Below, one piece after another: positions 3,790 through 25,085 of a stretch of 32,846 nucleotides of DNA. The stretch is taken from assembly GCA_049472355.1 (NCBI GenBank), contig JBLIRP010000042.1:1-32846 (forward strand), given 5' to 3'. This DNA comes from a bacterium. GTDB taxonomy: Bacteria > SZUA-182 > DTGQ01 > JAFGSM01. Positions within the stretch are counted from its first letter, which is position 1; every line of letters begins with the position of its first letter. The notes beneath the pieces are model-generated. The model was given only the letters and a program-made list of their open reading frames with translations. It had not been told where the DNA came from and did no database searches. Position numbers and translations under genes: made by a program.

Positions 3790-4323
3790 CTAATAAAGGA
3801 CGTTAGAAGGGTTATTATAATCATTCCATCTGATTCCAGGCCAAAATATTCCCGTAGTCAAATTCCCCCATTGTGACGATGGCGGCGATGTTCCCCCAGT
3901 TATTCCTGAACCCCACCATGGTGATCCACCTCCGGACCATATGCCACCACCACCCCATCCTATGAGGTCCCACAATCCCGGGAAGATCTGCATCCCGCCG
4001 ATACCACCAACGGGACTATATTCAGTGTATTCGGTAGAGGGTGCCCACCAATTCGGAAAGATATTCGGCATCTGAACCCTGTAGGTAATTTGAGGATAGA
4101 CTGTACCTGTGAGCCACAGGTCCGCCAAGCTGGTCCTCTGCATATACTCAATCCATGTTCCGGATGGATTCGTCACAATTCGTTTAATATACTCCTGCTG
4201 CTGTCTTGTGACATCATCACCAGGTTGGCTCGTTGCCGCCCTTGTTGCACGCCCCATAAGGGCAAAAACCAGGCAAAAAGCCAGCATACCGATCCCCAGG
4301 CATTTTACAGATTGTCTTTTCAT
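3790..4323 (-). CDS. Exported hypothetical protein (177 aa) with a Trp/Gly/Pro-rich low-complexity C-terminal half
   Basis: ATG at 4323 preceded by AAGGAGG. Signal peptide MKRQSVKCLGIGMLAFCLVFALMG..A. Tract GWGGGGIWSGGGSPWWGSG. Confidence 0.75.
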   Translation of the reverse strand: MKRQSVKCLGIGMLAFCLVFALMGRATRAATSQPGDDVTRQQQEYIKRIVTNPSGTWIEYMQRTSLADLWLTGTVYPQITYRVQMPNIFPNWWAPSTEYTEYSPVGGIGGMQIFPGLWDLIGWGGGGIWSGGGSPWWGSGITGGTSPPSSQWGNLTTGIFWPGIRWNDYNNPSNVLY

Positions 4324-4855: not shown

Positions 4856-4902
4856 AAAGTGGTACAGACGAGATAGCGCCGTCACATTATCAAATCATAC
4901 AC

Positions 4903-5592: not shown

Positions 5593-5656
5593 GACTTGTT
5601 CCCTTCATTGATGATATCGCGGATAATTCCCCATGATAAGAAAGATATTCGACCAT

Positions 5657-5698
5657 TTGACTTAGATCAATACACTCCATTGTGAGATGCGCTATATT
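5657..5698 (+). promoter_or_regulatory. FNR/HcpR-type box with a -10 element at class II spacing
   Basis: TTGAC-TTAG-ATCAA at 5657-5670 and TATATT at 5693-5698. The box centre falls at about -41.5 from a predicted +1 near 5705. Confidence 0.65.
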
Positions 5699-5757
5699 TT
5701 AAATTGAACGACAAAATTTTTAAAGAGAATATGAAGGGTTTTAAGGAGTGGGCTGGA

Positions 5758-5895
5758 ATGATAGTGTTGAAACATTTCCAGGATGGAGAAAAGGGATTTT
5801 TATCAACCTCCATTGCCCATATGAGAGCGCCTGCATTCGATATCGTGCGCGGGAATACAACTTTGACAAATCCGGATGATTGCTATGGCTTCTGA
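5758..5895 (+). pseudogene. Probable decayed 4Fe-4S ferredoxin-like (frdX-like) gene
   Basis: AAGGAG RBS then ATG. The ending AFDIVRGNTTLTNPDDCYGF* resembles the A..IV.GKA.L.....CDG(L/F) segment of dicluster ferredoxins; the other Cys are missing. Confidence 0.35.
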
Positions 5896-6150
5896 ATAAA
5901 GACAAAAAGGTTGAAAGGAGCCTTAATAACAGGTTCGTGGAAAAGTGGGATATGGGCGATGACGGTATTTTCACGGGAAACCACCTGAGGTAGCTGCACG
6001 CCCGGCTGTTCTCATCCATGTCCCATCTTCGATTGATGTGTTGTCTTAGGATCTAGCTCACATGATTTATGCACGGCCCCATTCCGGCCTCAATATCCAC
6101 AATTTCGTATCACAGAAGGGTTATTTTATAAAAAAACTTACCTATTCATA

Positions 6151-6179
6151 TTGCAAAACTTATTATTCATCGCTATACT
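6151..6179 (+). promoter_or_regulatory. Sigma70-type promoter upstream of the STAND regulator
   Basis: TTGCAA-N17-TATACT. Confidence 0.6.
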
Positions 6180-6466
6180 AATCAATAAAGAGACTTGGCT
6201 CTTCTTATATCTAAGGGCTGATATAAAAAATTACGGCTTATCACCTATTTGTTTCCTTCTGTCCATTTAAATAACGCAGCTTGATCCTCGCTATGAGGCG
6301 GCTTTATCCTCCCAAACCGATAGGTGAGTTGCGAGATCTTACCCGTTGCAGATGGAGACGTTACCCGTTACAGCCTGAGACTGAACCACCAACGATCCTG
6401 GAAGCCGGATTGCCTCACTATGGTCTCCATTACGTTAGCACCTCAGCAATACATTGGTGAGACAGA

Positions 6467-9400: not shown

Positions 9401-9799
9401 CCGTGCCGCGAACGTCTCAGGAATATGTTTCTGCGCTATACGGAAAAATTGGCCCTTTTACTTGAAAAGGCTGGCAGATGTGATCAGGCCATTGACTGGC
9501 TCAAAAGGGGGCTCGAGGCGGACGACCTTGCAGAAGGACTTTACCAGCAACTCATGTTCTGCCTGATGGGCCTTGAGCGGAAGGCGGAGGCCCTGGCGGT
9601 GTATCATCGCTGCAAAAAGGCCCTTGCGACCCGCCTTGGGGTCGAACCATCTTCGAAAACACAGGACATTTACATATCATTGGTCTCCGGAATAGGGGAA
9701 AATGGTGTACTCCCGCCTGAGACGCAATCCAAGGACCTGAAGCACGACGGCAAATATGCAATAGGGGCCGATGCAATTGATGCTATAGTAAAGCAATAA
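6467..9799 (+). CDS. MalT-like STAND transcriptional activator: N-terminal ATPase, TPR-like sensor region, C-terminal OmpR-type wHTH plus BTAD (SARP-like) domain
   Basis: Walker A GPAGSGKTT, Walker B VIVFDNYQ, TQGWAAGL and YQYHDLF. C-terminal VRIYTLGRF, LWPD, LHRLRKLL, CWVDAHAF, LYHGPFL and LGVEPS motifs. Confidence 0.9.
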   Translation: MSRKTGNQGISLPKITPPCIRDVLHRKRLFCHIDNGIKRPILWITGPAGSGKTTLIASYLENRKLPSLWYEFDRGDSDIAAFFYYMGLAVKRAAPKRKRALSLLTHEYLLDTLTFTKRFFEDLYDHLKQPSVIVFDNYQEVPAQSMLHEMLCAGLSGIPEGITIIFSSRDAPPPAMARLLANQQTEFIGWDELHFTENESKRLLKLRGGDMFSAEMMRQIHYATQGWAAGLILILLWTKREKANSHPLGRHSLKEIFDYFVYEIFGKLDMSKRDFLVKSAFLTQMTPHMAASLSGNPHADHILSQLHSKNCFIEKRSVHGEAVYQYHDLFKEFLLIRAQEEFSPPEVTQLHCEAANLLEASGYIEDAAELYIKAKQWERLVQLISRHAESLLCQGRSRTLEGWITSLPEEILKGTPWLSYWMGVSLLPFGPVDARGYFERAYSQFKSEKDAAGIFLSWSFIINSFVHERSNLYRLDIWIKELHEIRTLYPHFPSVEIEAQVTFSMFIALVFYIPEQPVDPPLPEWATRAEMLLEHVSDHDQVMITHHFLILYYLYSGNISKAALLLERLKHRIDHNKVRPLTTILSRLTEINYCCFTGDFVTAQRLVEKVLETAETSGAHIYTPHLFAFGVYSTLCVLNLTSASEYLKRMASCITPSKGNSYAAEYHYLVAWKAWLSGDLHKACEHSEIAVTIGEECQDGVGLMIGHIASAHVLTKCGNNREAASHLDQAHKIIRRGGYDFIQYKWLLAKAQLAFTCADEREGLHYARKAMSLGREKGIIFIDWFHPTLMTGLCVKALEAGIEVEHVQRLIRKLGLIPNDPPLECELWPWPVRIYTLGRFSVLKDGDPLHVSGRVQKRPLEMLKLLITHGDREVREMQLSDTLWPDADGDMAHRSFATTLHRLRKLLGDEKAGLRKGRLSLDHRYCWVDAHAFDRLLRKADEALKSSNRETAIQWMERALSLYHGPFLPGDEMKPWAVPCRERLRNMFLRYTEKLALLLEKAGRCDQAIDWLKRGLEADDLAEGLYQQLMFCLMGLERKAEALAVYHRCKKALATRLGVEPSSKTQDIYISLVSGIGENGVLPPETQSKDLKHDGKYAIGADAIDAIVKQ

Positions 9800-10379: not shown

Positions 10380-11177
10380 ATGAAATCATTAAAAATTTTA
10401 ACTGGAATAGTTTTAGCACTATCAATAGTAATGTTTCCACGTATTGGCATATCACAAATCACGGTTTCAGGTGATTATGGGTATGTTGCTGATATGACAT
10501 TAGGGGAAATTGCAAAGGTTGTAAATGATGCAGAAGCTATATCAGACATGTTAGATCGAATAAAAGACATTGAAGAACAGGTGAAATTAACTGAAGAGCA
10601 GATTAGCTTACTTCAAAAACAAGCTGAATCAACTCAAGAGCATGTGGAATCAATTCAAGAACAGGTTGAATCAAATCAAGAGGATATTGCAGATATGGCA
10701 GGTGCAATGCAAAACACGACTGCAGCACTTGAAGAATTATCAGAATACATGGACCCAAATATAGAATATAGATTAAATAAAATGGAAGACGCTATATTGG
10801 ATCTACAAGAAGGACAAGGGCCTGAGGGTCTGCCCGATTTGGCAGTTGATGTAATATGTCCTGTATCAAATTCTGATCCAATATGTATGGTCGTAAATAA
10901 TATGGGTGACACAAGCACTTCTATTGACACAGATATAGCAGTAAAGTTTGTATGCAAAGATGGGACAGTAGTGGAAAGAATATTGGTGAATAAAATCCCT
11001 GCTGGTCTTGCAGTAGGATCATATACTGATACTATTTGTCTTGCTATTCCTGCTGAATGTTATGTAACAGACATTTATGTATATATTGATCAGGATAATA
11101 GAGAGCCGGAACTAGAAGACTTTGAGAATAACAAAGGATACTGTCACTTCGCTCCATACAGCCCATATCTCCCCTAA
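10380..11177 (+). CDS. Exported protein with a coiled-coil stalk and C-terminal CARDB/Ig-like domain
   Basis: Signal peptide; heptads (AESTQEH/VESIQEQ/VESNQED); LPDLAV...VVNNMG...YIDQDN..E.....NN pattern typical of CARDB; GGAG RBS; AT-rich gene. Confidence 0.8.
   Translation: MKSLKILTGIVLALSIVMFPRIGISQITVSGDYGYVADMTLGEIAKVVNDAEAISDMLDRIKDIEEQVKLTEEQISLLQKQAESTQEHVESIQEQVESNQEDIADMAGAMQNTTAALEELSEYMDPNIEYRLNKMEDAILDLQEGQGPEGLPDLAVDVICPVSNSDPICMVVNNMGDTSTSIDTDIAVKFVCKDGTVVERILVNKIPAGLAVGSYTDTICLAIPAECYVTDIYVYIDQDNREPELEDFENNKGYCHFAPYSPYLP
10626..10683 (+). repeat. 21-bp in-frame tandem repeat (about 3 copies) encoding coiled-coil heptads
   Basis: GAATCAA.TCAAGA at 10626, 10647 and 10668. Confidence 0.8.
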
Positions 11178-11856: not shown

Positions 11857-12786
11857 ATGTTTGAATGGTGCCACACATCCATGAGCTTGGAAACAAAACG
11901 GGGCTTGCTGACCGCCCTTCTCCTGACTGCGCTGCTTCTCATGAGCGGGAAGGGATTGAGGCATGCGGGCTGCTACTACAGCGGTTTTCCAAACCTACAG
12001 TGGAATACGACATCCCTCGTGTCCGGCCTTACAACCTCAACACCCCTCTCTTTTCCCTTTTATAATACAGACTATGCCCAATCCTTCGGTTCATTCGGCG
12101 TCTACCCTGGATTTTCGGGACGATACGCAACCGGCGGCGTTCCCCATTACGGCGCCTTCTCCTATGGCGGCTCCTCACAGCCCTCATTTCCAAAGCTGAC
12201 TTTCAGCTATGGTATCCCCGGCAACATCAGCGCCGGCGGCAGCTTCGATTACATCGGCAGTATCGGCGGATTCGGCACTATCGGCAGTGTCGGCACCTTT
12301 GGCAGCCTCGCGTCCCTTTCGCGCCCCTTCTTCGGATACTCCCTCCCCTATTCCGGCCTCCTCCCCGGCGGATCCTACAAATCGCCCTTTGCCCCCTACA
12401 ATCCATTCAACAGGGCGGTGAGCTCGGACGATCCCCAGCCTCCATCGCAGAATTCACTGGATCCGCAGGCGGGAGACGAAGACATGGCCCGGGGAGCTGT
12501 CTATCTGAGGGATACGGAGATCTATATCCTGGAAAGCTACCCGATGCAGGTGAGGCTCGGATTGAAGGGGGACCTTCCTACCCCGTGCCACGAACTGCGC
12601 GCCAGGGTATCCGAACCGGACGGTCGGAACCGGATCATGGTCGAGGTTTATTCCCTTGTGGATCCCGGCCTGGCCTGCATTCAGGTGCTCGATCCCTTTG
12701 ACGTGAAGGTATCCCTGGGATCCTTCACGGAGGGTGCGTACACCGTCTGGGTAAACGGCGAGAAGGTGGAGGAGTTCAGCTTTTAG
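11857..12786 (+). CDS. Exported protein with about 150 aa of Gly/Ser/Phe/Tyr/Pro-rich low-complexity sequence and a small C-terminal beta domain with two Cys
   Basis: Hydrophobic signal LLTALLLTALLLM. C-terminal ILESYPMQV...PTPCHEL...ACIQV...GAYTVWVNG domain. The start could also be 11881. Confidence 0.8.
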   Translation: MFEWCHTSMSLETKRGLLTALLLTALLLMSGKGLRHAGCYYSGFPNLQWNTTSLVSGLTTSTPLSFPFYNTDYAQSFGSFGVYPGFSGRYATGGVPHYGAFSYGGSSQPSFPKLTFSYGIPGNISAGGSFDYIGSIGGFGTIGSVGTFGSLASLSRPFFGYSLPYSGLLPGGSYKSPFAPYNPFNRAVSSDDPQPPSQNSLDPQAGDEDMARGAVYLRDTEIYILESYPMQVRLGLKGDLPTPCHELRARVSEPDGRNRIMVEVYSLVDPGLACIQVLDPFDVKVSLGSFTEGAYTVWVNGEKVEEFSF

Positions 12787-13312
12787 CGGACCGGGCACCG
12801 TTGGGATCGTTGCCCTTTCCCGTAACTCCGGAGCAAAACCGAGCGCCATCGCCGGTCGCGTATCACCTCTTCACCCAGATCCGATTTGGCTTACACGGCT
12901 CATCATGGGCAATCTTCCATGATGCCTTGCGAAATATCTCACTATCCGTCAGAACATTCCCTGACGCTATTGGGTCGAGGAGGTGTTTCTTTGTTCAGCC
13001 AATCACTGCCACCCCTGGTAAAAAACACTACGGAAGTATCGTAATTTTTACTATGGTAAATAATCATTTATGGTGCTATTATTTTTATATACGAGAAATC
13101 CGGGGTGGGCATTCAGGTGATCCTATCGCAGTAAAAAGGGAAAATGCGTCTCGGTCAGCGGTTGCACAACTATCAGAGTACGTTCATAAACTGAATCACG
13201 GGGTACGTGTTTAAGGTTTCGATGTAAGCGCATATTGACCGATGTCGTCTCAAATATATATATATCACCTGCATAATTTCCATATATAAGAATAAAAATG
13301 AGGGAGGCAATC

Positions 13313-13771
13313 ATGAAACATAATAGGAATATTCTGATTATAATTGTGATTTGTCTTTTTTTCTCATCCTTCGCCTTCGCTAATCCACCAGTCTTTTTAT
13401 CAACAAGGCAAAGCCCGATACGGTTATTGACGATTAACGGGATTACATACACCTTCTATATGGGTCAATTTGAAAATAAACAGGGACCTGATCTATTTCA
13501 TAATCACATGCCATATCATGCACCAAGCAGAGACGTATTTTGGACGGGAAATTACTCGCAGAACAACAGCTCTTATGATTCACTCAACATAGCAGATGTA
13601 TATTGGCATGACAAAAGTGCCTATTCCTCTTGGAGTCAATATTCCTTTAATCCCTATTCACTCTCAACCGGAAATACAAATTATACTCTATTTGGTTCCA
13701 CAATCAACCAGTTTCAGAATAACAACTCCTCATTCGATTACGGATTTCTGTTTCCTTTGACCCCGCGATGA
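13313..13771 (+). CDS. Small exported Asn/Ser/Tyr/Phe-rich hypothetical protein (152 aa)
   Basis: GGAGG RBS before ATG 13313; signal peptide ending in AFA; low-complexity mature part. Confidence 0.7.
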   Translation: MKHNRNILIIIVICLFFSSFAFANPPVFLSTRQSPIRLLTINGITYTFYMGQFENKQGPDLFHNHMPYHAPSRDVFWTGNYSQNNSSYDSLNIADVYWHDKSAYSSWSQYSFNPYSLSTGNTNYTLFGSTINQFQNNNSSFDYGFLFPLTPR

Positions 13772-13806
13772 TATATTCAATCATCCGATTCCTTTTGATG
13801 CAGCGT

Positions 13807-13881
13807 CCTGCTACAAGCAGCGGGGTAAAATAATTTCTTTTGCCGCCTCAAGGAGCGGGAAATTACGCCCGCAAGGATTAA
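13807..13881. repeat. Degenerate IS200/IS605-like double-hairpin element between convergent genes
   Basis: CCTGCTACAAGCAGCGGGGTA and CCGCCTCAAGGAGCGGGAAATTA; a related copy lies at 26744-26775. Confidence 0.4.
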
Positions 13882-13888
13882 AAAAATA

Positions 13889-14257
13889 CTATATTAATTT
13901 TAAGTACAGAATAATGAGTCCTAAACCAAGAGATACTGCATTACACACACATGATAAAAGGATCGATCTTTTAATGCTTAGTTGTAATACGAAATAGATT
14001 ATGACTGCCTCCATGAGGAATACGAAAATCTCACCAAAGATCATATTTAAGTAATAATCTTTCAAGAAATTAGGGATCACAAACCATAAATAAGGCAACG
14101 TGGCGAAGGTACAAAAAATTCCGGTGAAAATGATGAGACCGGATGACAGCTCCTTCCCATTGATTCCCCAAAGGGCGCGAATCATAACAAATAATATCAT
14201 CGACTCCACAAGAATAGTGGAAATGAGAGCGAACAAAAATATGTGGTGATATACCAT
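13889..14257 (-). CDS. Small integral membrane protein (about 4 TM), function unknown
   Basis: Four hydrophobic segments containing polar residues (TILVE, ATLPYLWF, GE..VFLME, S..CNAVS). Confidence 0.75.
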   Translation of the reverse strand: MVYHHIFLFALISTILVESMILFVMIRALWGINGKELSSGLIIFTGIFCTFATLPYLWFVIPNFLKDYYLNMIFGEIFVFLMEAVIIYFVLQLSIKRSILLSCVCNAVSLGLGLIILYLKLI

Positions 14258-14289
14258 GGTTCGTCACCTGCCGCGACCAAAAACTGAAC

Positions 14290-14527
14290 CGGCGGGAAAG
14301 GTCTTTGTCCTCTTTGACAACTCCTCATCCATGAACGGGGAATGGTTCAATAAGCTGTTCCATGCAAAGCCGATCTGAGGCAAATTTCCAAGGATCTTGA
14401 CACCGGATTCAACGCCTACGTTAACATCAAGAAAGTGCTCCACCAGGTACACCATCTACGGGAGGTTGCGGACATCTTAGTCAGGACATCCTCGCCGCTG
14501 GGGAAGCAGCATAAATGTGCTCCTTAA
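14290..14527 (+). pseudogene. Decayed VWA-domain gene fragment
   Basis: The plus strand reads KVFVLFDNSSSMNGE (MIDAS DxSxS) with a stop at 14376, then a frameshifted GFNAYVNIKKVL...ADILVRT resembling the later VWA elements. Confidence 0.4.
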
Positions 14528-14579
14528 TGATATTTTGAATGCTCTCATTAGTTATCTTATAACGAACATAATGAAATTT

Positions 14580-17500
14580 CTATGGATATTTCGGGAATAG
14601 ATTCCTAGGATAATATGTCAATCCGTATCCATGATAAAAATTATTTAGCTGTGTTCCGTTGAAAAATCCATATCCTTTCGAATAAAAATAACTATTGTTG
14701 ATATAACTGTAGGGTGAAAACAACTGCGTGCTCAACGAAATCCTTCCAAACGAATTTGTTGACGGATATTGTCCGTATTGATTATTAGAGTAACCATACG
14801 ATGGGACAGATGATCGATTGCTTGCATTGAGATTTGACAGAGTCAAGTGACTATATGAAAAAAGGTTTGGTGCTTGATATGAATACTGCCCAGCAGGAGT
14901 CCAGAGAGGCGATTGATATTGATACAGAAATGTAATTTTTTGATAAGGGGGGATGCCTGTTATATAGGGGGTATAAGGTGGGAAAAAAGTATCCGTACCC
15001 GCACTTCCATTTTTCACCCGTATAACAACCGTATCAATTGCAAAATTCCCACCCTTATCCGTTACAATCAGTTCTACGGCATGCGTCCCCGCATTAAATT
15101 TATAATTAAGGGGATTCCCTTTCCCAAGCAAGGTACCTCCCTCATACCACTCATATACCAAATCATTACTGCAATTATCTGATGCCGTCGCTGTCAATGT
15201 AAGCAGACCAATCTCCTCCACCTCCATGTCATTACCTGCATAGACAGTGGGCGCCGTTTTGTCCGCGATTTCGACCCTTTGCTCTTGCACTGCCAGATTT
15301 CCAAAACCATCATCATAGACCCAGGTCACCTCGTAGGTGCCCTGATCCATATATATCAATGGATCATTCGTCATTGCCTCTACATGCCCGGCATAATCAT
15401 CGATCGCAGTTGGTGGATTCAGAACGACACTGCATTCCGCAACGATGTCCGGCAGTGGATCGATTTCCGGAACAGGGGGCTCAATGTCATCGATACATGT
15501 AAAACAACCTCCGGAAATTGTCCAACCTTCAAAATCATCCTCAAGATTCCTCAGATCAAAACCGGTGCCGATATCGAAACCTTCACACCCAATAACGAAA
15601 AACTCAAGGAATATGATGTTCTTGTGAGAGCCGGACTGAATGGAGTCATCTCCAAGCTCAAATCCGCCGATCCTGAGTGTACCTGCACCTTCCGGCTCTA
15701 TCACGTCAAAAAAGTCAAAATTCGCCATTCCCTTTCCAGGGAAAAACCCGGTATATTCCAGAATACTCGGATTATAGGTTATTTCAAAAGAAAAGGATTC
15801 AACCGAATTGGGTGCATTCTGCACCTTCACCGGGATGAGAATTTCATAGCCGATCATGCCATAGGCATCGATTATGTCCAGTGAACCGGAATCATCATGT
15901 ATACAATAGTCAGTGACCGTAAGTTCGTGATCCTCCGAAGGAGTACCGGGAACCGATATCCCATCTCTCTCAAAATGGAATCTATACGATAGATAACCAT
16001 CCCCCATGTAATCAATGGGGATTGAGAAGTAATAACTCATGCCATTTGCATAATTCTGATCATAGGGATCACATGGGAGCATATCGAACATCTCTTGTTG
16101 CGTATATGCGCCGTCATCATTCAGATCGATCCATACCTGTGCCGCATCCGGCGGATCATTCTCTTTTTGAAGATAGTCAACCCTGAATTCGAAATGCGTG
16201 CCCATCATTCCAATCTGGGGGGACACCCCGTTTTTGAAATCCGAATCCATGAACGTCAAAACCGTACTGGGATGGGAATACCTCACAAGCCCATCTATGG
16301 TACCAAACCATACATTGCCGCCTTCATCAATGACAATATCGCTGATCGCATTAAAACTCGTATCAACAGGTTCGGTATCGCTGTTCAGAAGCTGCCACGT
16401 GCCGGTGGCGAGATTGTGGTGTGTGGCGCCGCCTATCAGTGTTTCCGACTCCGGCCAGTGACCGATGTAAAGATCGTTTCCCCGGCGGCATACGGCGGTG
16501 ACCATATTACTGCCCATCTTCACCCCCCCTACCCCGTTCTTGTACTGGGTCCACGTATCCTGATCTGCATCGAAGTGGGAAAGGCCCATCGCCAGGGGTA
16601 CGGCATAATCGGAGCTGGTGCCCGGGTCCTGGCTGCCCACCCACACATCCCCCTCATCGTCGACATAGATGGTGCGCACGAGGTCGCCGCCGGGATAGGT
16701 GCCCTGGGATTTGCTGTATTCCACTATCTCTTCAGTGTCCGGGTCGAGCACCACGATCCCTTTATAGTCGAACACGACCATTTGATTGGCATCCAATCTG
16801 ACATCGGTGACCCCCGCCCAGATCCGACCATCCTGGTCAGCAGCCAGGGCCGATATCCAGTTTCCTCCCAGTTTTTCCCTGCTTGAGTACAGTGTCTTTA
16901 TACCGTTCTCGTACTTCGTGAGCACCGAATCGGAAATTTCCAGGGTATCGGGATCCTGTGTGGGATAGGTGGAAAACCACACTTGTCCCTCTCCACCGGC
17001 AATCAGGCTGCTCACAAAGCTGTTGGGGTCCACGATGTCCAGCACCGTTTCCCATTGAGACCCGTCATAGCGGGCGATCCCCTCCCACGTGCCAATCCAC
17101 ACCTCATCATCAGGGGTGATCGCTATTCTGACCACCGAGTTGCCGGGGATCCCCGATCCCTCCCTGAAGGTCCTCCATACGTCTCCATCATAGCTGGATA
17201 CCCCGCCGAAATTCTCCGGATCATCCTGGTCGGGATAGAACCCCGCCCACAGGACGTTATCCCCGTCCACCTCCAGGCAGGTGACATAATTTCCCGCAGG
17301 GCCATCACCAGGCCCCTCATCCATATGAAAAAACGTCCACCTTTCAGAGGGAGGGAACTCATTAATTCGGAAGGAATGATCCTCGGTGGGGTCGCCCTGC
17401 GCCTCCATCACCCCGTTGTGGAAATAAAATCGGTAGTTGATGGTCCCATCCCCGCGGTAGGTGAGGTTGACCGAAAGGGTATAGATCTTCCCGTCTGAGT

Positions 17501-20500
17501 AATCGACATCGTCCTCATCCTCTTCCTTCATGAGAAGTTTCTCCGTCGAGCCATATGCACCACTGTCATCGATGTCGATCCAGACACTCGTCACCTCGGG
17601 TTCGATATTTGCAGGATCGGTATACTTCACCTTGAACACGAAGAGCGATCCGCTGTCTCCCTGATTCGGCGCGACACCGTCGCTGGTGAAGCCCGTCCCT
17701 CCCGCCCAGTCAAGCTGTGGGGCCTCGGTTATTGTCAGGGTGAGGAAATTGATGCCGCTTGCGATGCCCGGGGCCTCAGCCCCATTCTCATCCTCGAAAT
17801 AGAACCGGTATGCAAGCACCCCGTCAGTGTCCTCGGGAAAACCGATCTCTTTGGAATACGTATATATCATACCGTTTTCCATCGTGGCGTTCGGGTCCTC
17901 CGACCCCATGTCGATTTTCTCACCCTCATCCTCGAAGTCGCCGTCGTCGTTAAGGTCGATCCATACCTGGGCCTTTGCAGGGGGATTCTCCAACCGATCC
18001 CGGTAATGGACCTTAAAGGTGAAGGTCTCCCCCGGTGAGGCGGATGCGGGGTGCACCCCCTTGTTGCCGTAATCATCCTCGTCCACCCAGTTCAGCGTGG
18101 TCTGAAATGACGTGGTATAGAGGTCATAGGAGCGGCTGTTCCGTATGTCCTCCCAGATGAAGGCGCAGCCTGAAGCGGAATCGCAGGTCATTGCAGGGCG
18201 GTCCTGGGACAGGGAAACCCCCACCGGTTGCATACCCTCATATTTTCCGCTGGAAACGGGAGAACCATCCAGGAGCCGTCCGTTCGAGTCCATCCGCACC
18301 ACCCTGACATTCCCGGTCCTTGGATAGGGAACGCTCAACCGATGCGCCAGCATATCCTCAGGTGCAAGCTCGTACGCGATATCAAGCCATGAAATCAGGT
18401 ACTGATTCCCCTGCGGGTCCCAGACGACCCTGGGCCGTACCTGATAACCGTCTGCGGTGCAGATGGGTATCTCCTTGAAGGGCAGGTCGAGGGCCTCGCC
18501 GTTGCTGTTGATCCTCATTCCGTAGATATCGTATCCGCGGTCGGTGTTTACAAAACGGTCATCCTGCCACACAACGAGAAAATCGTTACCGTCCGAGGCA
18601 ATGTCGGGAAGGATCTGGTTCCTGTTTGGATCGGCTCTGTAATCCTCATCGAACAGCTTGAACCCGACCCCTTCCGGATACAAATCCCCCCCGGGGGAGA
18701 TCCGTAAGCCGTAGATCCTGCTATAATGGTACCCGGAACTGGGGGATGCGCCGGCGACGTCCATCCACACCACCATATAGTATTCGCCGTTCCAGGCAAC
18801 CCTCGGCAGGAGCTGGTGCTCATCACCAAGTTCCCCTCCCGTTTCCGCCCAGTTGTTGATCTTCAGTTCAAATACCTCGCCGAAGGCGCCCCCGGGATGA
18901 TTCACAAAACGCGCATGGATGTCGGTCTTCGCTGACCTGGCTATCTTGGACTCATCCTCCCACGCCACCAGGTACTGTCCGTTATACCCCATGGCCATGG
19001 CGGGATTCAGTGCGTTCCGGTCGATACTCGGATCTGAAATGCAGCTTGCATCCGCAATGACAAATTCCCCCGCCTCATTGGCATTGCCGGTGTCGGTGAA
19101 GGGTGTCCCGTTTTCATCCAGGAATATTCCATATATGTCCAGTCCCTCGTATATGGCCTCGGGCTTGAAGTAGTTTCCGGCATCCTCCGAAGGGTCTATT
19201 GTGGCGCCGTTTCTCAGGTCCTCCCAGATCACCAGGGTTTTGCCTGTTGCCTTACTGTGGATGGCAGAGGGCTTGAAGGCGCCCATGTCTCCCGTATCGA
19301 GCTTTATCTGGCCCGGCTCGCCTGCAGCATCCATCACCCGCATATTCGCGTCGAGCAGCTCCATGTAGATATGGCTTCGCTTGATCAGTGCGTCATCGGC
19401 GTCAAGCTCCCAATCCCTGCTGTCCTGCCAGAATACCTGGTATCCGTCAAGGGTGACGGTGATAGAGGGAAAGAGCTGTTGATGGGTGTTCAGGCAGGCG
19501 GCGGTTTCACCAAGGGGATTGAAGCTCAGATAGCTCCCGGACAGGGGCTCGCCGGTTGACCGGTTTTTCCCGTCATCGAATTCGAACCGATAGGTCATGG
19601 TGGTCACCTCGTCCGATTCAAGGGTGAGCGTTGTGGTGAAGATCTCACCATTCTGATAGTCGGACCCGCTCGCATGCATGTCCCAGACCTCATTCGGATC
19701 GTAGTATCCATCCTCATTCCTGTCCACCCACAGCCTCTTGGTCGCCGGCGCATCGTTGTTTTCGTCCTGGTACAGGACGCGGAATTCAATGGAGGAGCTC
19801 TCTCCCCACCGGATTCCATCGGGTCTCGCACCGTCTGCGGTGAAGCCAACCTCCTCCGTCCAATCCAAGAAAGGCCGCTTACCAACGAGTTCCACCTCGA
19901 AGGTGTCACCCTCAGCCGGATCGCCGGTGGCCACGTTGTAGGGATCGGCAAAAAAGAAGCGGTAGGTGAGGGTTCCCTCCCCGTCATAGAGGATCTTCTT
20001 CTGGAGTGTGTATGCCCTGCCGAGCGTAAAGTCGCCCGAGCCCTCTGCGGTCATATCGAAACGCTCGTCACTCCCGAAGCGACCGCTGCCGTCCAGGTCG
20101 ATCCATACCTGGGCGACCTCGGGCCCTTCATCGATTTCCGGATCAGAGAAATACTTCACCTTGAAGGTGAAGATGCTTCCTCCGGCGGCCTGGTCCGGAT
20201 TGACCCCGTCTTCCTCGTAATCGTCGATCCCCACCCATTCCAGCCAGGGCGGGGGGGGAGGATCGTACATCCTTCCCTGCAATGTCCACACATCATCATC
20301 TCGTGCAGACCAGAGGCAAAAATAGCGGTCATCATCTCCCCCGGGGGTGGCAGCATCGGTCAGCCAGATAAACTGGTTTGCATCCTCGCTGAGGCGCGTG
20401 CCGCCGAATGATTCGGGGTCATCCTGAAGGAGATACCCCTCTGGCGAGATGCGGATCCCGTAGATGTGCTCGACCGGTTGCTCGGTGGTGGAATCCCGTT

Positions 20501-23500
20501 GATCAAGCCAGACAGCGAAAAATCCCCTTCCGTTGGTTGCAAGCTCGGGGTAGCGCTGCTTTTTGGAGGCGGAGCCGATATTGATGAGCCCCCCGGCAAA
20601 TTCCCCGTGCATATTGAGCATGATGCCCCAGACATCCGTATCGGTGCCCTCGTCGTCCGCCCATTGCTCCCAGACAACCAGAAATTGATTGTTGAGCCCT
20701 TCCACCGATGGGTTGTATTGATCCAGGCCGGAGATGGGGATCTGGGCAAGAAGGAGGGACAATTCAAGGGTGCCGCTGGGGTCCACCTGAATGAAACGCG
20801 CCAGGATGTCCAGACCGTATTCGGAGGGATCCTGCACGCTCCCGCTCCACGCAACGATCCAGGAAACACCATTGGGGTCCTCGAGAGAGGCGATATCGAA
20901 GCAGGGCCTGATCCCCTTTTTGTTGTATGCCATGTCCGTGCTGATCTCCACGGGATCCTGGTCGATGATCGCACCGTCCGCATCAAGCCTCTTCCCGTAC
21001 AGGGAGACCTTGCCCTTCTCGGCGTCATGCTCCGTCCAATCCTCCCACACCACCAGGTAGTGATCGCCGTGCCATTTCACCCTGGGGAAGTTCTGGCTCC
21101 CCGTGCCCGCTGCAATGGGAACCTCATCCACCAGGTCACCCTGTGCGCTGACAATTGCGCCGTAGATGTCCAGACCCTCGGTATTGTCCGGATCTTCATT
21201 CCTGCCGTCCGCCCATACCACGAGGTAGCGGTCGCCGTCGGAGCCGACATCCGGGTTTCTTTGATTTCCGGCAATGGAACCGACGGTCACAAGATCCCCC
21301 TGAACGGCGCCTTCCCGGTCAAGCAACTGGGCATGGACGTCCCTTTCCGTTCCCTTATGCTCCTGCCATACGCAGAGATATCCCTCACCATTCGAGGCGA
21401 TCCTCGTATTGAGTTTTCTATTGGTTCTTCGGTTTTGATCTTGTTGGAAAATAATTGGATCTCCCGGCAGTACTGATGTGAAAGAGTCGGATCTTGTCAC
21501 AAATTTGATTGAGAGTGGAGAGGGCATCGCATTGCCGATAGAATCCCTTGCAGTTTCTTCGATGCTGAATATATAAAGCATTCCCTGTGATAAGGGCTGA
21601 TTTGGATAAAAGTAAAGAACCTCGTTATATTGTGCAGCAGGCCACACGAAACTGCCGCCTGCACATGAATATCCCGGTCCTGCCCAATCGGGATCTATCT
21701 TCAGGCAGAAGGCACCCTGTACGCTGTTCGGATCCATAGCCCGATCAAAGCGGATGACAACCCGCTCCGCGATGCTGACCTCCTGCTGTCCCTGATGGGG
21801 ACTGGTGGACACGATCCACCCGGAGGAGGTCCTGAAGCTCACCTGATAGGTTTGGCTGAGTGGATTACCGGAAAGATCCTCGCCAGTGGCAGCCACCCTC
21901 ATGGAATAGAGCGTACTGGTAATCAGGGGGCTGCTCGGGGTGAATATGAGTCGTGTCCCCTCCCACGAGAAAGACCCTGCAACCGTGTTTGAAGATGCAT
22001 CCATTAGGGAAAAGACCGCCTGCACACCATCGGTATCCATCAACTCGGAAAATTGTACCCAAAATGGTCCGCAGACCGGTATATTGGTGTTCGAATCGGA
22101 GGGGTAGGAGCCGGTAACGGCAGGACTCCCGTTATCGCCGACGATCAGCAAGCCTTCGCTCGTCCCCGCCATGATGCCGCCGTTTTTGATCGGGAACACA
22201 GTAAACACCTCGTCACCCGCAAAGGCGTAACGGGCCCAGCTATCGGGCGAGCCTGTGGGCGCAGTGACATCATAGCTGCTGATGCCCGCCCCCTGATTCG
22301 GATCTGCTGAGGTCACCACCCAGAGCAGGTTCGGGTCGTCCTGGCTCTTCGTCACCTCGTAAATGGAATCATACAGGAGCCCCCCGGCGGTATCGGTGTA
22401 GTCATACGCCACAAAATCGCACACCCCCAGAAGCAGATTGTCAATGTTTATGGTGTAGAGCCCATCGTAGGCGGCGAGCCAGAGGCTGCCGTTTCCGTCC
22501 ACAGTCATGCCCCTCAGGAAGGGACGCACCTGCCCGATGAGCCTGACCTTGGGCAGGCCCCCGTTCGGGTTCCAGGCCCATATATTGGGGTCCCACACCT
22601 CCGGCCATTGATCAAGTCGCTCGGCGAATTTCAGTGCGTCGATCCCGGCGATGTAATTGCAGGGATCACTCGGGTCCCAGATCGGGTTTCCGCTCTCAAG
22701 CCAGATGGTGCCGGTGACCGGGTCCGCGGCAAGCATGTGCAGTGTCTGGGGGTCCGCCTTGGCTGACCACTTCCAGTCCCCCAGGTTGGCATCGTATTGC
22801 CCTACGCCGATCCCTCCGGTGGTGGCGATCCAGATCAGATCTCCAGTGCCTGTTGGATAAACGTCAATGGCATTGACCCTGAAGAATGCCTGGATGGCCT
22901 CCGGGGTCAGGCCTGCCCTGTCCACGATGTAGAACCGGCTGGGATCGCTGGCGGGTGAATAAAGCGACCAATCCTGTCCGTCGAACCGGGCCACCCCGCC
23001 TCCGATATTGTTGGGATCGGGCTCCGTCGCCACCCAGACGTTCCCCGTGCTGTCAAAGGCTACATCGGTGATGTAGTCGCTCGTCAGCCCGCAGTTTGGA
23101 TCGGAGGCCGTGTAGTGCGTCCACCCGATTCCATCGAAACGGTACAGCCCGAGCCCCGTCCAGATCCCGGTGCCGGAATCGATGGAGGCGAGCCCCGTCC
23201 AGAGGCTCCCATCCGCAGGGCTAATGCCCATAGCGGAGAACCCAATGTCGTTGGGATCGATCGTGATACCATTGGGATCGATGGCAACGGCAGGCCATGC
23301 CTGGTATGGATCAAGCGGGTATGCGGCGGGGAGCACGGTGGTAAAGGTCAGGACAAGGTCCTCTGCGAGGGGATTCCCAAAGAGGTCCGTCACATCGTTG
23401 ATCATGGTCAGGGTGTACTGGCTCCCCGGGACGAATCCACCGGATTTTGTTATGTAGAGGATGGTCCGGTTGTTTGCATCCAGAAAGCTCGTCTCGCCCT

Positions 23501-25085
23501 GCTGGATATTTTCCACGGGGTATCCCGAGCGCTGGAGCCGGATGTTCGAGGGAAAGCCGAAAAAGCTGGTGTGATCCATCAGCTTGTTGAACGTAATGGT
23601 GATGGTGGCATCCAGGGCCACTCCGGTCTCGTCGGGATCGGGGTCGGTATCGGTCACCTCCGACGGGATAAGGGTCTTGAACTGCAGATCGTAATCGGGG
23701 GGCAGGATTGGCAAACCGGACTGATCCAGGATGGCGGAGGTAAACTTGAACCGGTAGTAAGTGTTGGGATGGAGCTGATAGCCCGCCTCCCTCGGCTCAA
23801 TGATGAGATGGGTGTCCGTTCCGGAATCACGGAAGCGCCAGGTGAAGTCATTCGGGTTATATATGTCGGGATCGTTGATGATCATGAAATTTGCGTCGAG
23901 CATCTCGAAGGTCAGGCTGCTGCCCGCAACACCCAGTACAACGGTGGTGTCGTTGATGCGCTCGTTGAACACCACCTCGATGGTGCTGGTCTCCAGGGGC
24001 ACCTCCACGCTCCCGTTTGCCGGGCTCGTCCAGATGAGCGCCCCCTCCTTCCAACGGTACAGCCCCCCCTCCTGGGTTCCGAACCATACCTGGTGATTCA
24101 TGGTGCCCACAGTGTCCACCATGACATCGGTGATCACCTGTTCTTCGAGGTCAACGGAGGCGGGGAAACCGATCGGCTGCCACAGGTCAAAATCGAGGTC
24201 GTAGCGCGCGATGCCTTCATTGGTGACCACAATGATCCGGTTTGCGTCCTCATAGACGCCGAGCGCACGTATGTTATTAGAGGGAAGACCAAACTCGGAT
24301 GCCTCCCAGTGGTCCCATACATTCGGATCGGGTTGAAAATGCCACAACCCGGAATCATCACTCCCCAGCCACAGATCGCCGCTGTGCCCGATCTTGATGC
24401 TATTAAACACGAGGGTATCCCATCCGGAAGGGAGAAAGTAATCCCACGCATTGCCGCTGACCTTATAGCGGTAGACGCCGAAGAGGAATGAGAGCGCCCA
24501 GACAGTGCCATCCCCAGCCGAGTCTACCCCCCGGCACGAGATGGAATCAAATAAGGACGTATCATAGTTATAAAGGGTAAACTGATGTGTATTCTTGTCG
24601 AATCGATGGAGACCGTCATCAAGGTCCAAATTGCCGGTTCGTGCGATCCACACGTAATTTGCATCCGCCGTGATATCCACGATTTCATTGGGGTAAAGTA
24701 AACTGTTTGTAAATGTCCGGGGATTATTGGGATCGAGAAGATTGTCGGGATCATAGGAGACGAGGCCCTGCGATGTACCGAGCCAGAGCACATTATTCTG
24801 GTCTATATCCATACTTGTTAAAGGGGTATAGGAATCAATCAAGACATGTAATGTCCATCCCATATTCGGATCATCCAGCAGGAGGTCATAATCCACCAAC
24901 CCCTCATCGGCCGCGACCCAAACCCTGTCGGGGTCCGATGCAAGGCTGACGATGCGAGAGGAAGGGAAATAATCGGTATTATTGGGATCGAAATGCTCCC
25001 AGATTCCTTCAGCATTTCTTAGGGAAACTAGAAGAATAAGTATGATAAAAAATATTTTCCCGATATCTTTGAAGAAATTTTCCAT
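14580..25085 (-). CDS. Giant (3501 aa) exported surface protein: about five beta-propeller blocks, four SbsA/Big_5-like Ig domains, five copies of a roughly 110-aa WIDxxxxG domain, cohesin-like, HYR-like and PKD-like domains, and a Tyr-rich low-complexity tail
   Basis: Signal peptide; xxxDxxGxxWxxT propeller repeats; YLVVWxD repeats; TSP..G...V.....I.V.F...MD...D..GNPL....F.T Ig pattern; IPVKVQNAPNSVESFSFEITYNPSILEY cohesin-like segment; YEW...GTHAVELIVTD PKD-like segment. Confidence 0.92.
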   Translation of the reverse strand: MENFFKDIGKIFFIILILLVSLRNAEGIWEHFDPNNTDYFPSSRIVSLASDPDRVWVAADEGLVDYDLLLDDPNMGWTLHVLIDSYTPLTSMDIDQNNVLWLGTSQGLVSYDPDNLLDPNNPRTFTNSLLYPNEIVDITADANYVWIARTGNLDLDDGLHRFDKNTHQFTLYNYDTSLFDSISCRGVDSAGDGTVWALSFLFGVYRYKVSGNAWDYFLPSGWDTLVFNSIKIGHSGDLWLGSDDSGLWHFQPDPNVWDHWEASEFGLPSNNIRALGVYEDANRIIVVTNEGIARYDLDFDLWQPIGFPASVDLEEQVITDVMVDTVGTMNHQVWFGTQEGGLYRWKEGALIWTSPANGSVEVPLETSTIEVVFNERINDTTVVLGVAGSSLTFEMLDANFMIINDPDIYNPNDFTWRFRDSGTDTHLIIEPREAGYQLHPNTYYRFKFTSAILDQSGLPILPPDYDLQFKTLIPSEVTDTDPDPDETGVALDATITITFNKLMDHTSFFGFPSNIRLQRSGYPVENIQQGETSFLDANNRTILYITKSGGFVPGSQYTLTMINDVTDLFGNPLAEDLVLTFTTVLPAAYPLDPYQAWPAVAIDPNGITIDPNDIGFSAMGISPADGSLWTGLASIDSGTGIWTGLGLYRFDGIGWTHYTASDPNCGLTSDYITDVAFDSTGNVWVATEPDPNNIGGGVARFDGQDWSLYSPASDPSRFYIVDRAGLTPEAIQAFFRVNAIDVYPTGTGDLIWIATTGGIGVGQYDANLGDWKWSAKADPQTLHMLAADPVTGTIWLESGNPIWDPSDPCNYIAGIDALKFAERLDQWPEVWDPNIWAWNPNGGLPKVRLIGQVRPFLRGMTVDGNGSLWLAAYDGLYTINIDNLLLGVCDFVAYDYTDTAGGLLYDSIYEVTKSQDDPNLLWVVTSADPNQGAGISSYDVTAPTGSPDSWARYAFAGDEVFTVFPIKNGGIMAGTSEGLLIVGDNGSPAVTGSYPSDSNTNIPVCGPFWVQFSELMDTDGVQAVFSLMDASSNTVAGSFSWEGTRLIFTPSSPLITSTLYSMRVAATGEDLSGNPLSQTYQVSFRTSSGWIVSTSPHQGQQEVSIAERVVIRFDRAMDPNSVQGAFCLKIDPDWAGPGYSCAGGSFVWPAAQYNEVLYFYPNQPLSQGMLYIFSIEETARDSIGNAMPSPLSIKFVTRSDSFTSVLPGDPIIFQQDQNRRTNRKLNTRIASNGEGYLCVWQEHKGTERDVHAQLLDREGAVQGDLVTVGSIAGNQRNPDVGSDGDRYLVVWADGRNEDPDNTEGLDIYGAIVSAQGDLVDEVPIAAGTGSQNFPRVKWHGDHYLVVWEDWTEHDAEKGKVSLYGKRLDADGAIIDQDPVEISTDMAYNKKGIRPCFDIASLEDPNGVSWIVAWSGSVQDPSEYGLDILARFIQVDPSGTLELSLLLAQIPISGLDQYNPSVEGLNNQFLVVWEQWADDEGTDTDVWGIMLNMHGEFAGGLINIGSASKKQRYPELATNGRGFFAVWLDQRDSTTEQPVEHIYGIRISPEGYLLQDDPESFGGTRLSEDANQFIWLTDAATPGGDDDRYFCLWSARDDDVWTLQGRMYDPPPPPWLEWVGIDDYEEDGVNPDQAAGGSIFTFKVKYFSDPEIDEGPEVAQVWIDLDGSGRFGSDERFDMTAEGSGDFTLGRAYTLQKKILYDGEGTLTYRFFFADPYNVATGDPAEGDTFEVELVGKRPFLDWTEEVGFTADGARPDGIRWGESSSIEFRVLYQDENNDAPATKRLWVDRNEDGYYDPNEVWDMHASGSDYQNGEIFTTTLTLESDEVTTMTYRFEFDDGKNRSTGEPLSGSYLSFNPLGETAACLNTHQQLFPSITVTLDGYQVFWQDSRDWELDADDALIKRSHIYMELLDANMRVMDAAGEPGQIKLDTGDMGAFKPSAIHSKATGKTLVIWEDLRNGATIDPSEDAGNYFKPEAIYEGLDIYGIFLDENGTPFTDTGNANEAGEFVIADASCISDPSIDRNALNPAMAMGYNGQYLVAWEDESKIARSAKTDIHARFVNHPGGAFGEVFELKINNWAETGGELGDEHQLLPRVAWNGEYYMVVWMDVAGASPSSGYHYSRIYGLRISPGGDLYPEGVGFKLFDEDYRADPNRNQILPDIASDGNDFLVVWQDDRFVNTDRGYDIYGMRINSNGEALDLPFKEIPICTADGYQVRPRVVWDPQGNQYLISWLDIAYELAPEDMLAHRLSVPYPRTGNVRVVRMDSNGRLLDGSPVSSGKYEGMQPVGVSLSQDRPAMTCDSASGCAFIWEDIRNSRSYDLYTTSFQTTLNWVDEDDYGNKGVHPASASPGETFTFKVHYRDRLENPPAKAQVWIDLNDDGDFEDEGEKIDMGSEDPNATMENGMIYTYSKEIGFPEDTDGVLAYRFYFEDENGAEAPGIASGINFLTLTITEAPQLDWAGGTGFTSDGVAPNQGDSGSLFVFKVKYTDPANIEPEVTSVWIDIDDSGAYGSTEKLLMKEEDEDDVDYSDGKIYTLSVNLTYRGDGTINYRFYFHNGVMEAQGDPTEDHSFRINEFPPSERWTFFHMDEGPGDGPAGNYVTCLEVDGDNVLWAGFYPDQDDPENFGGVSSYDGDVWRTFREGSGIPGNSVVRIAITPDDEVWIGTWEGIARYDGSQWETVLDIVDPNSFVSSLIAGGEGQVWFSTYPTQDPDTLEISDSVLTKYENGIKTLYSSREKLGGNWISALAADQDGRIWAGVTDVRLDANQMVVFDYKGIVVLDPDTEEIVEYSKSQGTYPGGDLVRTIYVDDEGDVWVGSQDPGTSSDYAVPLAMGLSHFDADQDTWTQYKNGVGGVKMGSNMVTAVCRRGNDLYIGHWPESETLIGGATHHNLATGTWQLLNSDTEPVDTSFNAISDIVIDEGGNVWFGTIDGLVRYSHPSTVLTFMDSDFKNGVSPQIGMMGTHFEFRVDYLQKENDPPDAAQVWIDLNDDGAYTQQEMFDMLPCDPYDQNYANGMSYYFSIPIDYMGDGYLSYRFHFERDGISVPGTPSEDHELTVTDYCIHDDSGSLDIIDAYGMIGYEILIPVKVQNAPNSVESFSFEITYNPSILEYTGFFPGKGMANFDFFDVIEPEGAGTLRIGGFELGDDSIQSGSHKNIIFLEFFVIGCEGFDIGTGFDLRNLEDDFEGWTISGGCFTCIDDIEPPVPEIDPLPDIVAECSVVLNPPTAIDDYAGHVEAMTNDPLIYMDQGTYEVTWVYDDGFGNLAVQEQRVEIADKTAPTVYAGNDMEVEEIGLLTLTATASDNCSNDLVYEWYEGGTLLGKGNPLNYKFNAGTHAVELIVTDKGGNFAIDTVVIRVKNGSAGTDTFFPPYTPYITGIPPYQKITFLYQYQSPLWTPAGQYSYQAPNLFSYSHLTLSNLNASNRSSVPSYGYSNNQYGQYPSTNSFGRISLSTQLFSPYSYINNSYFYSKGYGFFNGTQLNNFYHGYGLTYYPRNLFPKYP

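Follow-up and report, generated by a model that had tools for sequence, protein, structure and literature searches.

Background

Can a segment of protein that is defined by its composition rather than by its sequence hold an exported protein at a bacterial surface? This question is raised by a 32,846-nucleotide stretch of DNA (termed here the window), which comprises positions 1 to 32,846 of the forward strand of contig JBLIRP010000042.1 in assembly GCA_049472355.1, from a bacterium of the GTDB lineage SZUA-182; DTGQ01; JAFGSM01. Within the window lies the gene of a giant acidic protein that bears a predicted signal peptide and that ends in a tail of 136 residues, rich in tyrosine and devoid of aspartate and glutamate. 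A first-pass annotation, made from the letters alone, took this tail and similar tracts in neighboring exported proteins to be a composition-encoded tag that may co-assemble diverse cargo domains into a sheath, S-layer or matrix. Here such tracts are traced through the genome carrying the window (G000, 87.5% complete), through other genomes of its order (among them G001, G003, G006 and G009) and through genomes of sister families (among them G014 and G016), and the ways in which they might retain their cargo are weighed.

A charge-free tail on a giant protein with a predicted export signal

The features with which the analysis begins are the following.

14580..25085, reverse strand: gene of the 3501-residue acidic protein with predicted signal peptide (open reading frame (ORF) and domain searches)
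14583..14990, reverse strand: C-terminal charge-free Tyr/Ser/Pro/Asn/Phe tract of 136 residues (composition scan)
14991..15908, reverse strand: cohesin-HYR-PKD cassette, which travels with the tail (domain searches and orthologue comparison)

The giant protein comprises beta-propellers (Reg_prop), Ig domains of the Big_5 type, repeats resembling GEVED, and cohesin, HYR-like and PKD domains, followed by the tract. Its body is 15.8% Asp + Glu, and its tail is composed of 22 Tyr, 18 Ser, 14 Pro, 13 Asn, 11 Phe, 11 Leu, 10 Thr, 10 Gly, 9 Gln, 3 Lys, 3 Arg and 2 His, with no Asp or Glu; the 143-residue segment that was scored includes 34 aromatic residues, and the tract has five [G/S]Y[G/S] motifs. 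Residues 1-2937 match, at 66-73% identity, two tandem genes elsewhere in G000, both of which are CFI-tagged at their ends; the window gene is a fusion of two such tandem genes with an added cohesin-HYR-PKD-tail unit.

The tail as first annotated is borne out by contigs, shuffles and orthologues alike. Because tail DNA, when shuffled 20,000 times, almost never stays open (0.01%), seldom lacks Asp and Glu codons (0.27%) and never encodes 22 Tyr, read-through into AT-rich DNA is excluded. An assembly artefact is ruled out by the orthologous tails and by independent contigs that bridge the PKD/tail junction in two of four runs, from different studies (X3 13303-15209 and X8 14927-15372); the whole giant gene is spanned by no single piece in the runs examined. 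The orthologous tail in G001 is 68% identical, with a ratio of nonsynonymous to synonymous substitution rates (dN/dS) of about 0.43 over 136 codons; that in G003 is 34% identical and of like composition (its folded part is 50% identical). Substitutions that create Asp, Glu or Lys account for 3 of 43 and 3 of 78 changes in the tails as against 35 of 134 in the folded part, and the orthologous tails are, as these comparisons indicate, under purifying selection. An identical type of cassette (cohesin-HYR-PKD) precedes a Tyr-rich tail in G003, and HYR-PKD precedes a shorter Trp/Pro/Thr tail in G006. No anchor model in Pfam or NCBIfam matches the tail, in keeping with the original remark that none of these proteins shows an SLH, LPXTG, PEP-CTERM or beta-barrel anchor, and atlas searches with it gave no leads. 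Metagenomes with matching sequence include those from marine sediment, mangrove and estuary; no RNA data set is among the matches listed.

Tracts throughout the genome

Genes of G000 were called with a purpose-built ORF caller (2,916 genes, about 2,950 once AT-rich ORFs had been rescued) and scored with a log-odds model whose training tracts lay on contigs other than the window's, signal peptides being disregarded; signal peptides are predictions of a hydropathy heuristic of our own rather than of SignalP. This yields 169 tract proteins, or about 6% of genes, 160 of which have a predicted signal peptide; in a shuffled proteome no protein reached at least 20 bits. When a tract is called at a score of at least 25 bits, 144 of the 896 proteins with a signal-like N-terminus have one versus 6 of the 1,732 without a hydrophobic segment (odds ratio 55), so that the tracts are confined to proteins predicted to be exported. 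The nine tract proteins not called signal-bearing comprise three with visible signal peptides, three that run off contig ends, two that are broken, with the signal lying upstream, and one antisense shadow; by their sequences none is a convincing cytoplasmic protein. Genes broken just past the signal peptide, by an in-frame stop or a frameshift, are seen in G000 at C22:about 4760-7233 and C48:about 2060-3074.

The tracts, whose median length is 137 residues (range 31-280), consist of 18% Gly, 12% Tyr (11.7% before rounding), 11% Pro, 10% Ser, 10% Leu, 6% Thr, 6% Ala, 5% Phe, 4% Asn, 4% Gln and 2% Trp, with 0.2% Lys, 0.2% His, 0.5% Glu, 1.3% Asp and 1.1% Arg. The label 'acid-free' hence holds for the tail but is too narrow for the tracts genome-wide, which are charge-free. 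They are mostly stand-alone (99 proteins) or terminal (38 N-terminal to cargo, 18 C-terminal, 4 at both ends), as had been expected; in 10 of the 169, however, they are internal. Likewise, the view that tracts share composition and not alignable sequence stands for those in the window but fails genome-wide, where there are two alignable paralogue families (described below). A domain scan of 52 cargo proteins and 7 stand-alone proteins identified, as cargo, proteases and inhibitors (subtilases, an M4 protease, and chagasin, Kazal and alpha-2-macroglobulin inhibitors), polysaccharide deacetylase, GSDH, PASTA, LVIVD propellers, cohesin, Cthe_2159, a c7-type cytochrome, a GEGP dihaem protein and a transglutaminase-like protein.

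The ends of these proteins are biased. The residue just after the predicted cleavage site is Gln in 74 of 153 tract proteins versus 49 of 404 controls (which include membrane anchors); the last residue is hydrophobic in 100 of 156; and Phe or Trp caps tract C-termini at a frequency of 0.32 versus about 0.08 inside. The words GGLY and GGLYGGLYG occur in 31 and 12 genes, respectively, and are absent from the window tail. Tract genes are clustered in islands, half of the 20-kb windows of G000 holding none. An 11-member paralogue family (including G000 C132:5713, C129:13923, C104:22151, C13:1701, C100:5069 and C1:84700) ends in PWWS[YF], some members having full tracts at either end. The genome also encodes very large multihaem cytochromes with 60, 49, 28, 26, 25 and 24 CxxCH motifs (G000 C92:11987, C67:34714, C67:29575, C136 and C80), of which the 60-haem protein has an internal tract.

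Marker families and phylogenetic range

The stand-alone genes include proteins with YGGLYGG repeats and an alignable family termed here PPYN, of which G000 has 34 copies, some PPYN being fused to cargo; in a second alignable family a tract is joined to an eight-stranded avidin-like barrel. Range was assessed in 13 genomes of the order, 7 sister genomes of the class and 21 other bacteria (28 genomes outside the order), the order and sister genomes being one another's kin and some of them incomplete. All 13 order genomes and none of the 28 others have PPYN, at 10-71 copies per genome, and the same holds for the pattern YGG[LMI]YGG[LMI]YG; the barrel family, with 4-41 copies, is found in 13 of 13 order genomes and 0 of 7 sister genomes. 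The barrel model (predicted local distance difference test (pLDDT) 90) resembles avidins, NHBA and small barrels at Z 10-14, and in other lineages, where the family has weaker relatives, a lipobox is present in 18 of 55 tract-free matches. For PPYN the AlphaFold model has pLDDT 76 and a predicted template-modeling score (pTM) of 0.69; fold and sequence searches of the PDB gave no match (best Z 2.6), which does not show that the fold is new, and all leads from atlas searches were below 0.9. No curated model in Pfam or NCBIfam covers the tail, PPYN or the barrel.

Direct sampling of 20-kb windows near housekeeping genes found 2 signal-bearing tract ORFs in 392 kb from the order (as against 161 in all of G000), 1 doubtful ORF in 362 kb from sister genomes and none in 180 kb from other phyla. 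Because tract genes are clustered and the order's own windows are near-empty, this sampling is uninformative regarding sister families, and the absence of non-repetitive tracts there is supported indirectly, through the marker families. The tracts are, then, abundant in the genome and kept in homologues, and they match no curated sorting domain. The three contrary outcomes named in the first-pass annotation (tracts equally common in cytoplasmic proteins, tracts rare elsewhere in the genome and absent from homologues, a match to a described sorting domain) were each looked for and none was found, which supports a composition-encoded tag on diverse exported cargo.

The commonest neighbor of PPYN arrays, in 6 genomes, is a protein read as a sulfatase joined to TPR repeats (L112-L130; in G000, C17:2251 and C82:3-2875); these arrays have no conserved transport neighbor.

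Tracts in the place of known anchors

Comparison with homologues indicates that the tract occupies the slot of lipid, Cys-tag or barrel anchors in three unrelated cargo families, and such exchanges add to the evidence that it is a retention module. The first family is that of the giant protein's body, for which 22 complete homologues at 17 chosen loci were compared: 18 end in CF[ILVT] (6 of them followed by a transmembrane (TM) helix), 2 in an MXAN_2562-like outer-membrane barrel (matches below cut-off), 2 in another small domain and none in a tract. The full CFI-box-CTERM domain occurs in sister families and short remnants alone in the order, where the tag appears to have been truncated. About 15 exported proteins of G000 end in a short GCFI remnant (C78, C127, C87, C88, C144, C46, C73 and others; L147-L150), the sister families having the full 69-residue CFI-box-CTERM.

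The second family is represented in the window by the following gene.

11857..12786, forward strand: protein with signal peptide, N-terminal tract and PF27154 domain (start probably at 11881)
11974..12456, forward strand: its N-terminal tract (68 bits)

Among 61 matches to PF27154, the 10 with a tract have no canonical lipobox and 49 of the other 51 have one (42 called by regular expression, 7 by eye), proteins with this domain being lipoproteins in other lineages. Where homologues show A-x-S/YY, the window protein has HAGC/YY, which is read from its sequence as a signal peptidase I site. Across nine homologues, tracts of this type are 47% identical as against 77% for the domain, and each contains 0-4 Asp, Glu and Lys residues.

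The third family is glutaminyl cyclase, found in 9 of the 13 order genomes (G000 not among them). Nine of its 11 copies in the order have a signal peptide and a tract (one just below the score threshold) and two are lipoproteins; a sister-family copy has neither tract nor lipobox. Charged residues make up 14-18.5% of the catalytic domain in 8 of 9 tract copies versus 22-23% in the three copies without a tract; the cyclase tree leaves room for one or several gains of the tract, and this loss of charge may have been a single event. Subtilase paralogues that are 52-56% identical carry the tract at either the N- or the C-terminus, and at subtilase loci all of the best 30 of 87 matches keep a tail of 84-261 residues whose Asp + Glu + Lys fraction is at most 0.10.

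A further anchor module may be a C-terminal domain with an FFGRP motif, seen by eye on many exported proteins (G000 C61:77005, C108:12523, C45:946, C73:6313, C88:4057, C102:15849 and C138:38345); BLAST with one copy did not gather the others.

Secretion machinery and known sorting signals

The lineage is diderm (BamA in 21 of 21 genomes, LpxC in 5 of 5) and has kept Lgt and lipoproteins. It has two type II secretion system (T2SS) clusters, with GspD, GspE and GspF above cut-off and NCBIfam-confirmed (the Pfam search for GspK is weak); secretins also occur in sister families. The co-occurring transport or processing gene that had been anticipated did not emerge from the systems and neighbors searched: among those systems no dedicated translocon for tract proteins was found, and no motif marks the junction between tract and cargo. 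Full-length CsgG is absent from the three order genomes tested, with partial matches (positions about 9-103 of 210) in G000, G006 and G009, and is found only in sister genome G014. SLAM is present in 2 of 20 genomes, although one cargo family has an eight-stranded barrel; MrtJ is above cut-off in none of 5 genomes; exosortase was not found in G000, at its stated completeness, and is present in G006, G009 and G014; and SprA was found in none of 5 genomes, control genomes being equally silent. Extra Omp85 genes, as read by eye, adjoin TamB-like or two-partner secretion (TPS)-passenger-like genes.

Known sorting signals fare no better. The type IX secretion system (T9SS) C-terminal domain model does not match the giant protein, whose body shows partial PorZ-like propeller matches below cut-off; CFI-box-CTERM (NF041770, 69 positions) matches neither the giant protein nor anything else in G000, full matches being confined to G014 and G016; and the tail has no MYXO-, JDVT- or PEP-CTERM model match, no Cys and no TM segment, its only Lys and Arg residues being those listed above. 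A loose lipobox pattern fits 5 of 160 tract proteins versus 74 of 603 other signal-bearing proteins, and neither SLH nor LPXTG was matched in 13 window and 59 genome proteins. Because tracts occur at either end and lack a junction motif, a processed sorting signal is disfavored. Two giant exported proteins (L073:9001-11616 and L074:193-3000, G000 C127) carry PorU-like (C25 sortase-like) domains, which score below cut-off, and after them a terminal CFI remnant; their genome yielded no T9SS translocon.

How the tracts might work

Physically, the tracts are 19-23% aromatic and 1-5% charged. Their aromatic residues are dispersed, adjacent pairs occurring at 0.61 and i+2 pairs at 0.77 of expectation, with no beta periodicity; among 93 non-repeat tracts spacing is more even than in shuffles for 41 (z<-1) and less even for 11. 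A TM-like segment occurs in only 2 of 158 tracts. Interfacial hydropathy is negative in 96-100% of tracts versus 0.5% of control windows.

This sticker-spacer pattern, together with suckerin-like repeats and the precedent of Brosi_A1236 (both discussed below), leads us to favor a reading that we hold to be about evenly poised between right and wrong: the tail would be one copy of an order-wide, composition-encoded module, whose aromatic sticker-spacer co-assembly with about 100 stand-alone tract proteins into a coat or matrix holds the cargo at the cell envelope. Tract proteins would be exported via Sec and, as the heuristic predicts, cleaved by signal peptidase I; the N-terminal Gln thereby exposed would likely be cyclized by glutaminyl cyclase, which is itself tract-bearing in most order genomes. 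(In Bacteroidetes, N-terminal Gln is cyclized at the periplasmic face and does not act as a sorting signal (PMC5837995).) The proteins would then cross the outer membrane, probably via one of the two T2SS, or alternatively stay in the periplasm. Evenly spaced Tyr, Phe and Trp on an uncharged Gly/Ser/Pro/Asn/Gln background could, by analogy, condense in seawater with YGGLYGG and PPYN scaffolds, and the cargo (adhesin, subtilases, protease inhibitors, deacetylase and cytochromes) might thereby be retained, which would explain why a tract stands in place of a lipid, Cys-tag or barrel anchor. Barrel-ended homologues, adhesin cargo and the T2SS point to a location outside the outer membrane.

Several observations weigh against co-assembly into an outer coat. 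Aromatic spacing in the window tail itself (z +0.19) is no more even than in shuffles, and the interfacial hydropathy of tracts (median -13 versus +29 for controls) suits membrane binding equally well. Only 3 of 37 multihaem exported proteins have a tract, many large acidic exported proteins have neither a tract nor a recognized anchor, and in G000 the mutual exclusion of tracts and recognized anchors is not significant (3/33 versus 33/144, p=0.09). The cyclase model PF05096 finds no match in G000 or in three of its four congeners. The cyclase and the macroglobulin and PASTA cargo point to the periplasm, where alpha-2-macroglobulin and PASTA proteins usually reside. Glutaminyl cyclase, too, is usually periplasmic (PMC5837995).

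The tract might instead anchor proteins directly at a membrane interface: as a peptide stand-in for lipid, it would place its aromatic residues in the outer membrane or in the periplasmic face of a membrane. This is rather unlikely but is the main rival to co-assembly: replacement of lipoprotein, Cys-tag/TM and barrel anchors fits it as well as it fits co-assembly, and both the favorable interfacial hydropathy and the Phe/Trp-capped C-termini agree with it, as does the aromatic lipid anchoring shown for Bap1-57aa (PMC12965690). It leaves unexplained, however, the roughly 99 cargo-free genes and the tandem arrays of up to 71 PPYN paralogues, and it sits poorly with the lack of i+2 periodicity, the rarity of TM-like segments and the continued presence of Lgt and lipoproteins in the lineage. 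Tracts lack the cationic charge needed for binding lipopolysaccharide, Lys being so scarce; Bap1-57aa is cationic. Membrane anchoring and co-assembly are, moreover, not exclusive but compatible with each other.

It is improbable that tracts are read by a receptor, or processed, as the recognition signal of a curli-, T9SS- or sortase-like machine dedicated to export or attachment. The strict order-level distribution of the marker families, the position of the tract in the slot of a CTERM tag that is full-length in sister families and a remnant in the order, and the biased termini (Gln at +1, a hydrophobic last residue) would all suit such a signal, but its position at either terminus or internally, its variable length and the missing junction motif would not; nor do the machines themselves turn up, given the CsgG, SLAM, exosortase and MrtJ results, the company kept by the extra Omp85 genes and the lack of a conserved transport neighbor at PPYN arrays. 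A covalently cross-linked (dityrosine or 3,4-dihydroxyphenylalanine (DOPA)) coat of a cyst, spore or sheath seems very improbable: Tyr-cross-linked coats exist elsewhere, Tyr is plentiful in the tracts, and the cargo includes proteases, inhibitors and the dihaem and transglutaminase-like proteins, but Phe, Trp and Leu freely replace Tyr, and multicopper oxidase is found in one of five genomes, which is not G000. (A tyrosinase search was blank, its control being likewise silent.) It is scarcely credible that the tracts have nothing to do with anchoring, whether as flexible linkers or as low-complexity sequence that has expanded neutrally; rapid drift (the 47% versus 77% identity noted above), repeat slippage and gene islands might suggest this, but the tracts are terminal rather than inter-domain and confined to exported proteins, and the dN/dS of the tail and the paucity of substitutions to Asp, Glu or Lys speak for constraint.

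Comparison with known systems

Curli and Fap amyloids and Streptomyces chaplins build a surface layer from small paralogues that are exported by Sec and prone to aggregate. The tracts differ in being Pro-rich (11%) and lacking beta periodicity, in numbering more than 100 genes and in carrying folded cargo; the depletion of i+2 aromatic pairs and the Pro content weigh, as read from sequence, against cross-beta fibrils. Prion-like domains of the FUS/hnRNPA1 type and the galectin-3 N-terminal domain have dispersed aromatic stickers, polar spacers and near-zero charge. Tracts are like them in their dispersed aromatics (about 20%) and polar uncharged spacers over some 137 residues (median); FUS-type domains, however, are eukaryotic and mostly intracellular, whereas tracts are exported and richer in Leu, Pro and Trp.

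The amorphous M2 module of squid ring tooth suckerins has the words GYG, GGY and GGLY and the sequence YGYGGLYGGLYGGLGYG (PMC11931252), to which tract repeats are equal; suckerins are described there as secreted and as assembling themselves, driven by Tyr, into a non-covalent material. They are, however, animal proteins that need a His/Ala-rich crystalline M1 module, which tracts (0.2% His) lack, they do not serve as enzyme tags, and no homology between them and the tracts is shown. Brosi_A1236 of anammox bacteria is an Ig-like surface protein whose disordered C-terminus binds itself, phase-separates and gels in the matrix (PMC7482068); it differs in being a single Thr/Ser/Gly-rich protein, not a module shared by dozens of unrelated cargos, and its description makes no mention of tyrosine. 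Bap1-57aa of Vibrio cholerae, an aromatic-rich adhesive peptide on a matrix protein, is one conserved loop, which folds as a beta-hairpin in lipid, and not a genome-wide tag (PMC12965690). CFI-box-CTERM (NF041770) and MYXO- and JDVT-CTERM are described as short portable Cys modules on unrelated surface proteins (bioRxiv 2023.06.07.544157). The window tail sits exactly where homologues have their CFI remnant, but unlike these tags the tract has no motif, Cys, TM helix or basic cluster, no cognate protease was found for it, and it occurs at either end.

Other genes in the window

The remaining window genes that bear on the tracts are as follows.

13298..13771, forward strand: small stand-alone protein with predicted signal peptide (tract 13538-13765, 34 bits, 4 Asp/Glu)
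3790..4323, reverse strand: small stand-alone protein with predicted signal peptide (Trp/Gly/Pro-rich tract 3793-4116, 34 bits)
10380..11177, forward strand: protein with signal peptide, coiled coil, beta domain and a 10-residue aromatic/Pro stub at its end (tract membership uncertain)

With a model trained without this contig, the three other window proteins said to have like tracts do score as such (68, 34 and 34 bits, the first being the PF27154 protein). The supposed short version at the end of the 10380-11177 product is there as an aromatic/Pro stub, but its 10 residues are too short to call and are suggestive only; a match to its final 9 residues is seen at 1 of 1,146 C-termini of cytoplasmic proteins and at 0 of 535 of other exported proteins, the stub having been chosen post hoc. 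This protein has no homologue among the other 19 genomes searched. Genes 10380-11177, 13298-13771 and 13889-14257 are low in G+C content, and the two genes between the 11857 gene and the giant gene are missing at the equivalent place in G001, where nothing corresponds to 13298-13771; from the low G+C content, the lack of a 10380 homologue and the G001 gap, these genes look like recent insertions.

Elsewhere, MurJ (1963-3636, forward strand) has its nearest matches beyond the lineage in Actinomycetota, at 61-64% identity, which suggests lateral transfer. The window also encodes a MalT-like BTAD regulator (6467-9799, forward strand), an exported MopE/TSP3-repeat protein without a tract (26838-29765, reverse strand) and a protein with a signal-like N-terminus and a Cys/Thr/Gly-rich region containing many T-x-x-T-C type motifs (31250-32137, reverse strand; no Pfam match).

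Implications

Taken furthest, at somewhat less than an even chance, the analysis would have the whole order building an outer coat from squid-tooth-like, self-condensing proteins, with partitioning into the condensate as its anchoring system: a tract of some 140 residues at either end would recruit enzymes without sortase, lipid or receptor, and resident enzymes would then lose surface charge as an adaptation to working within the condensate. In the open-access literature searched, no description of such tract-based anchoring was found. If correct, this would be an extracellular counterpart of the recruitment of clients to condensates, convergent with squid suckerins, and the tracts would supply hundreds of natural sequences that self-assemble underwater, along with two unnamed families, PPYN and the avidin-like barrel. 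Even if tracts act as membrane anchors instead, they would be an undescribed type of anchor. Known bacterial surface anchors rely on a motif, a fold or a lipid; the natural exchanges described here suggest that, in this order, composition alone may suffice.

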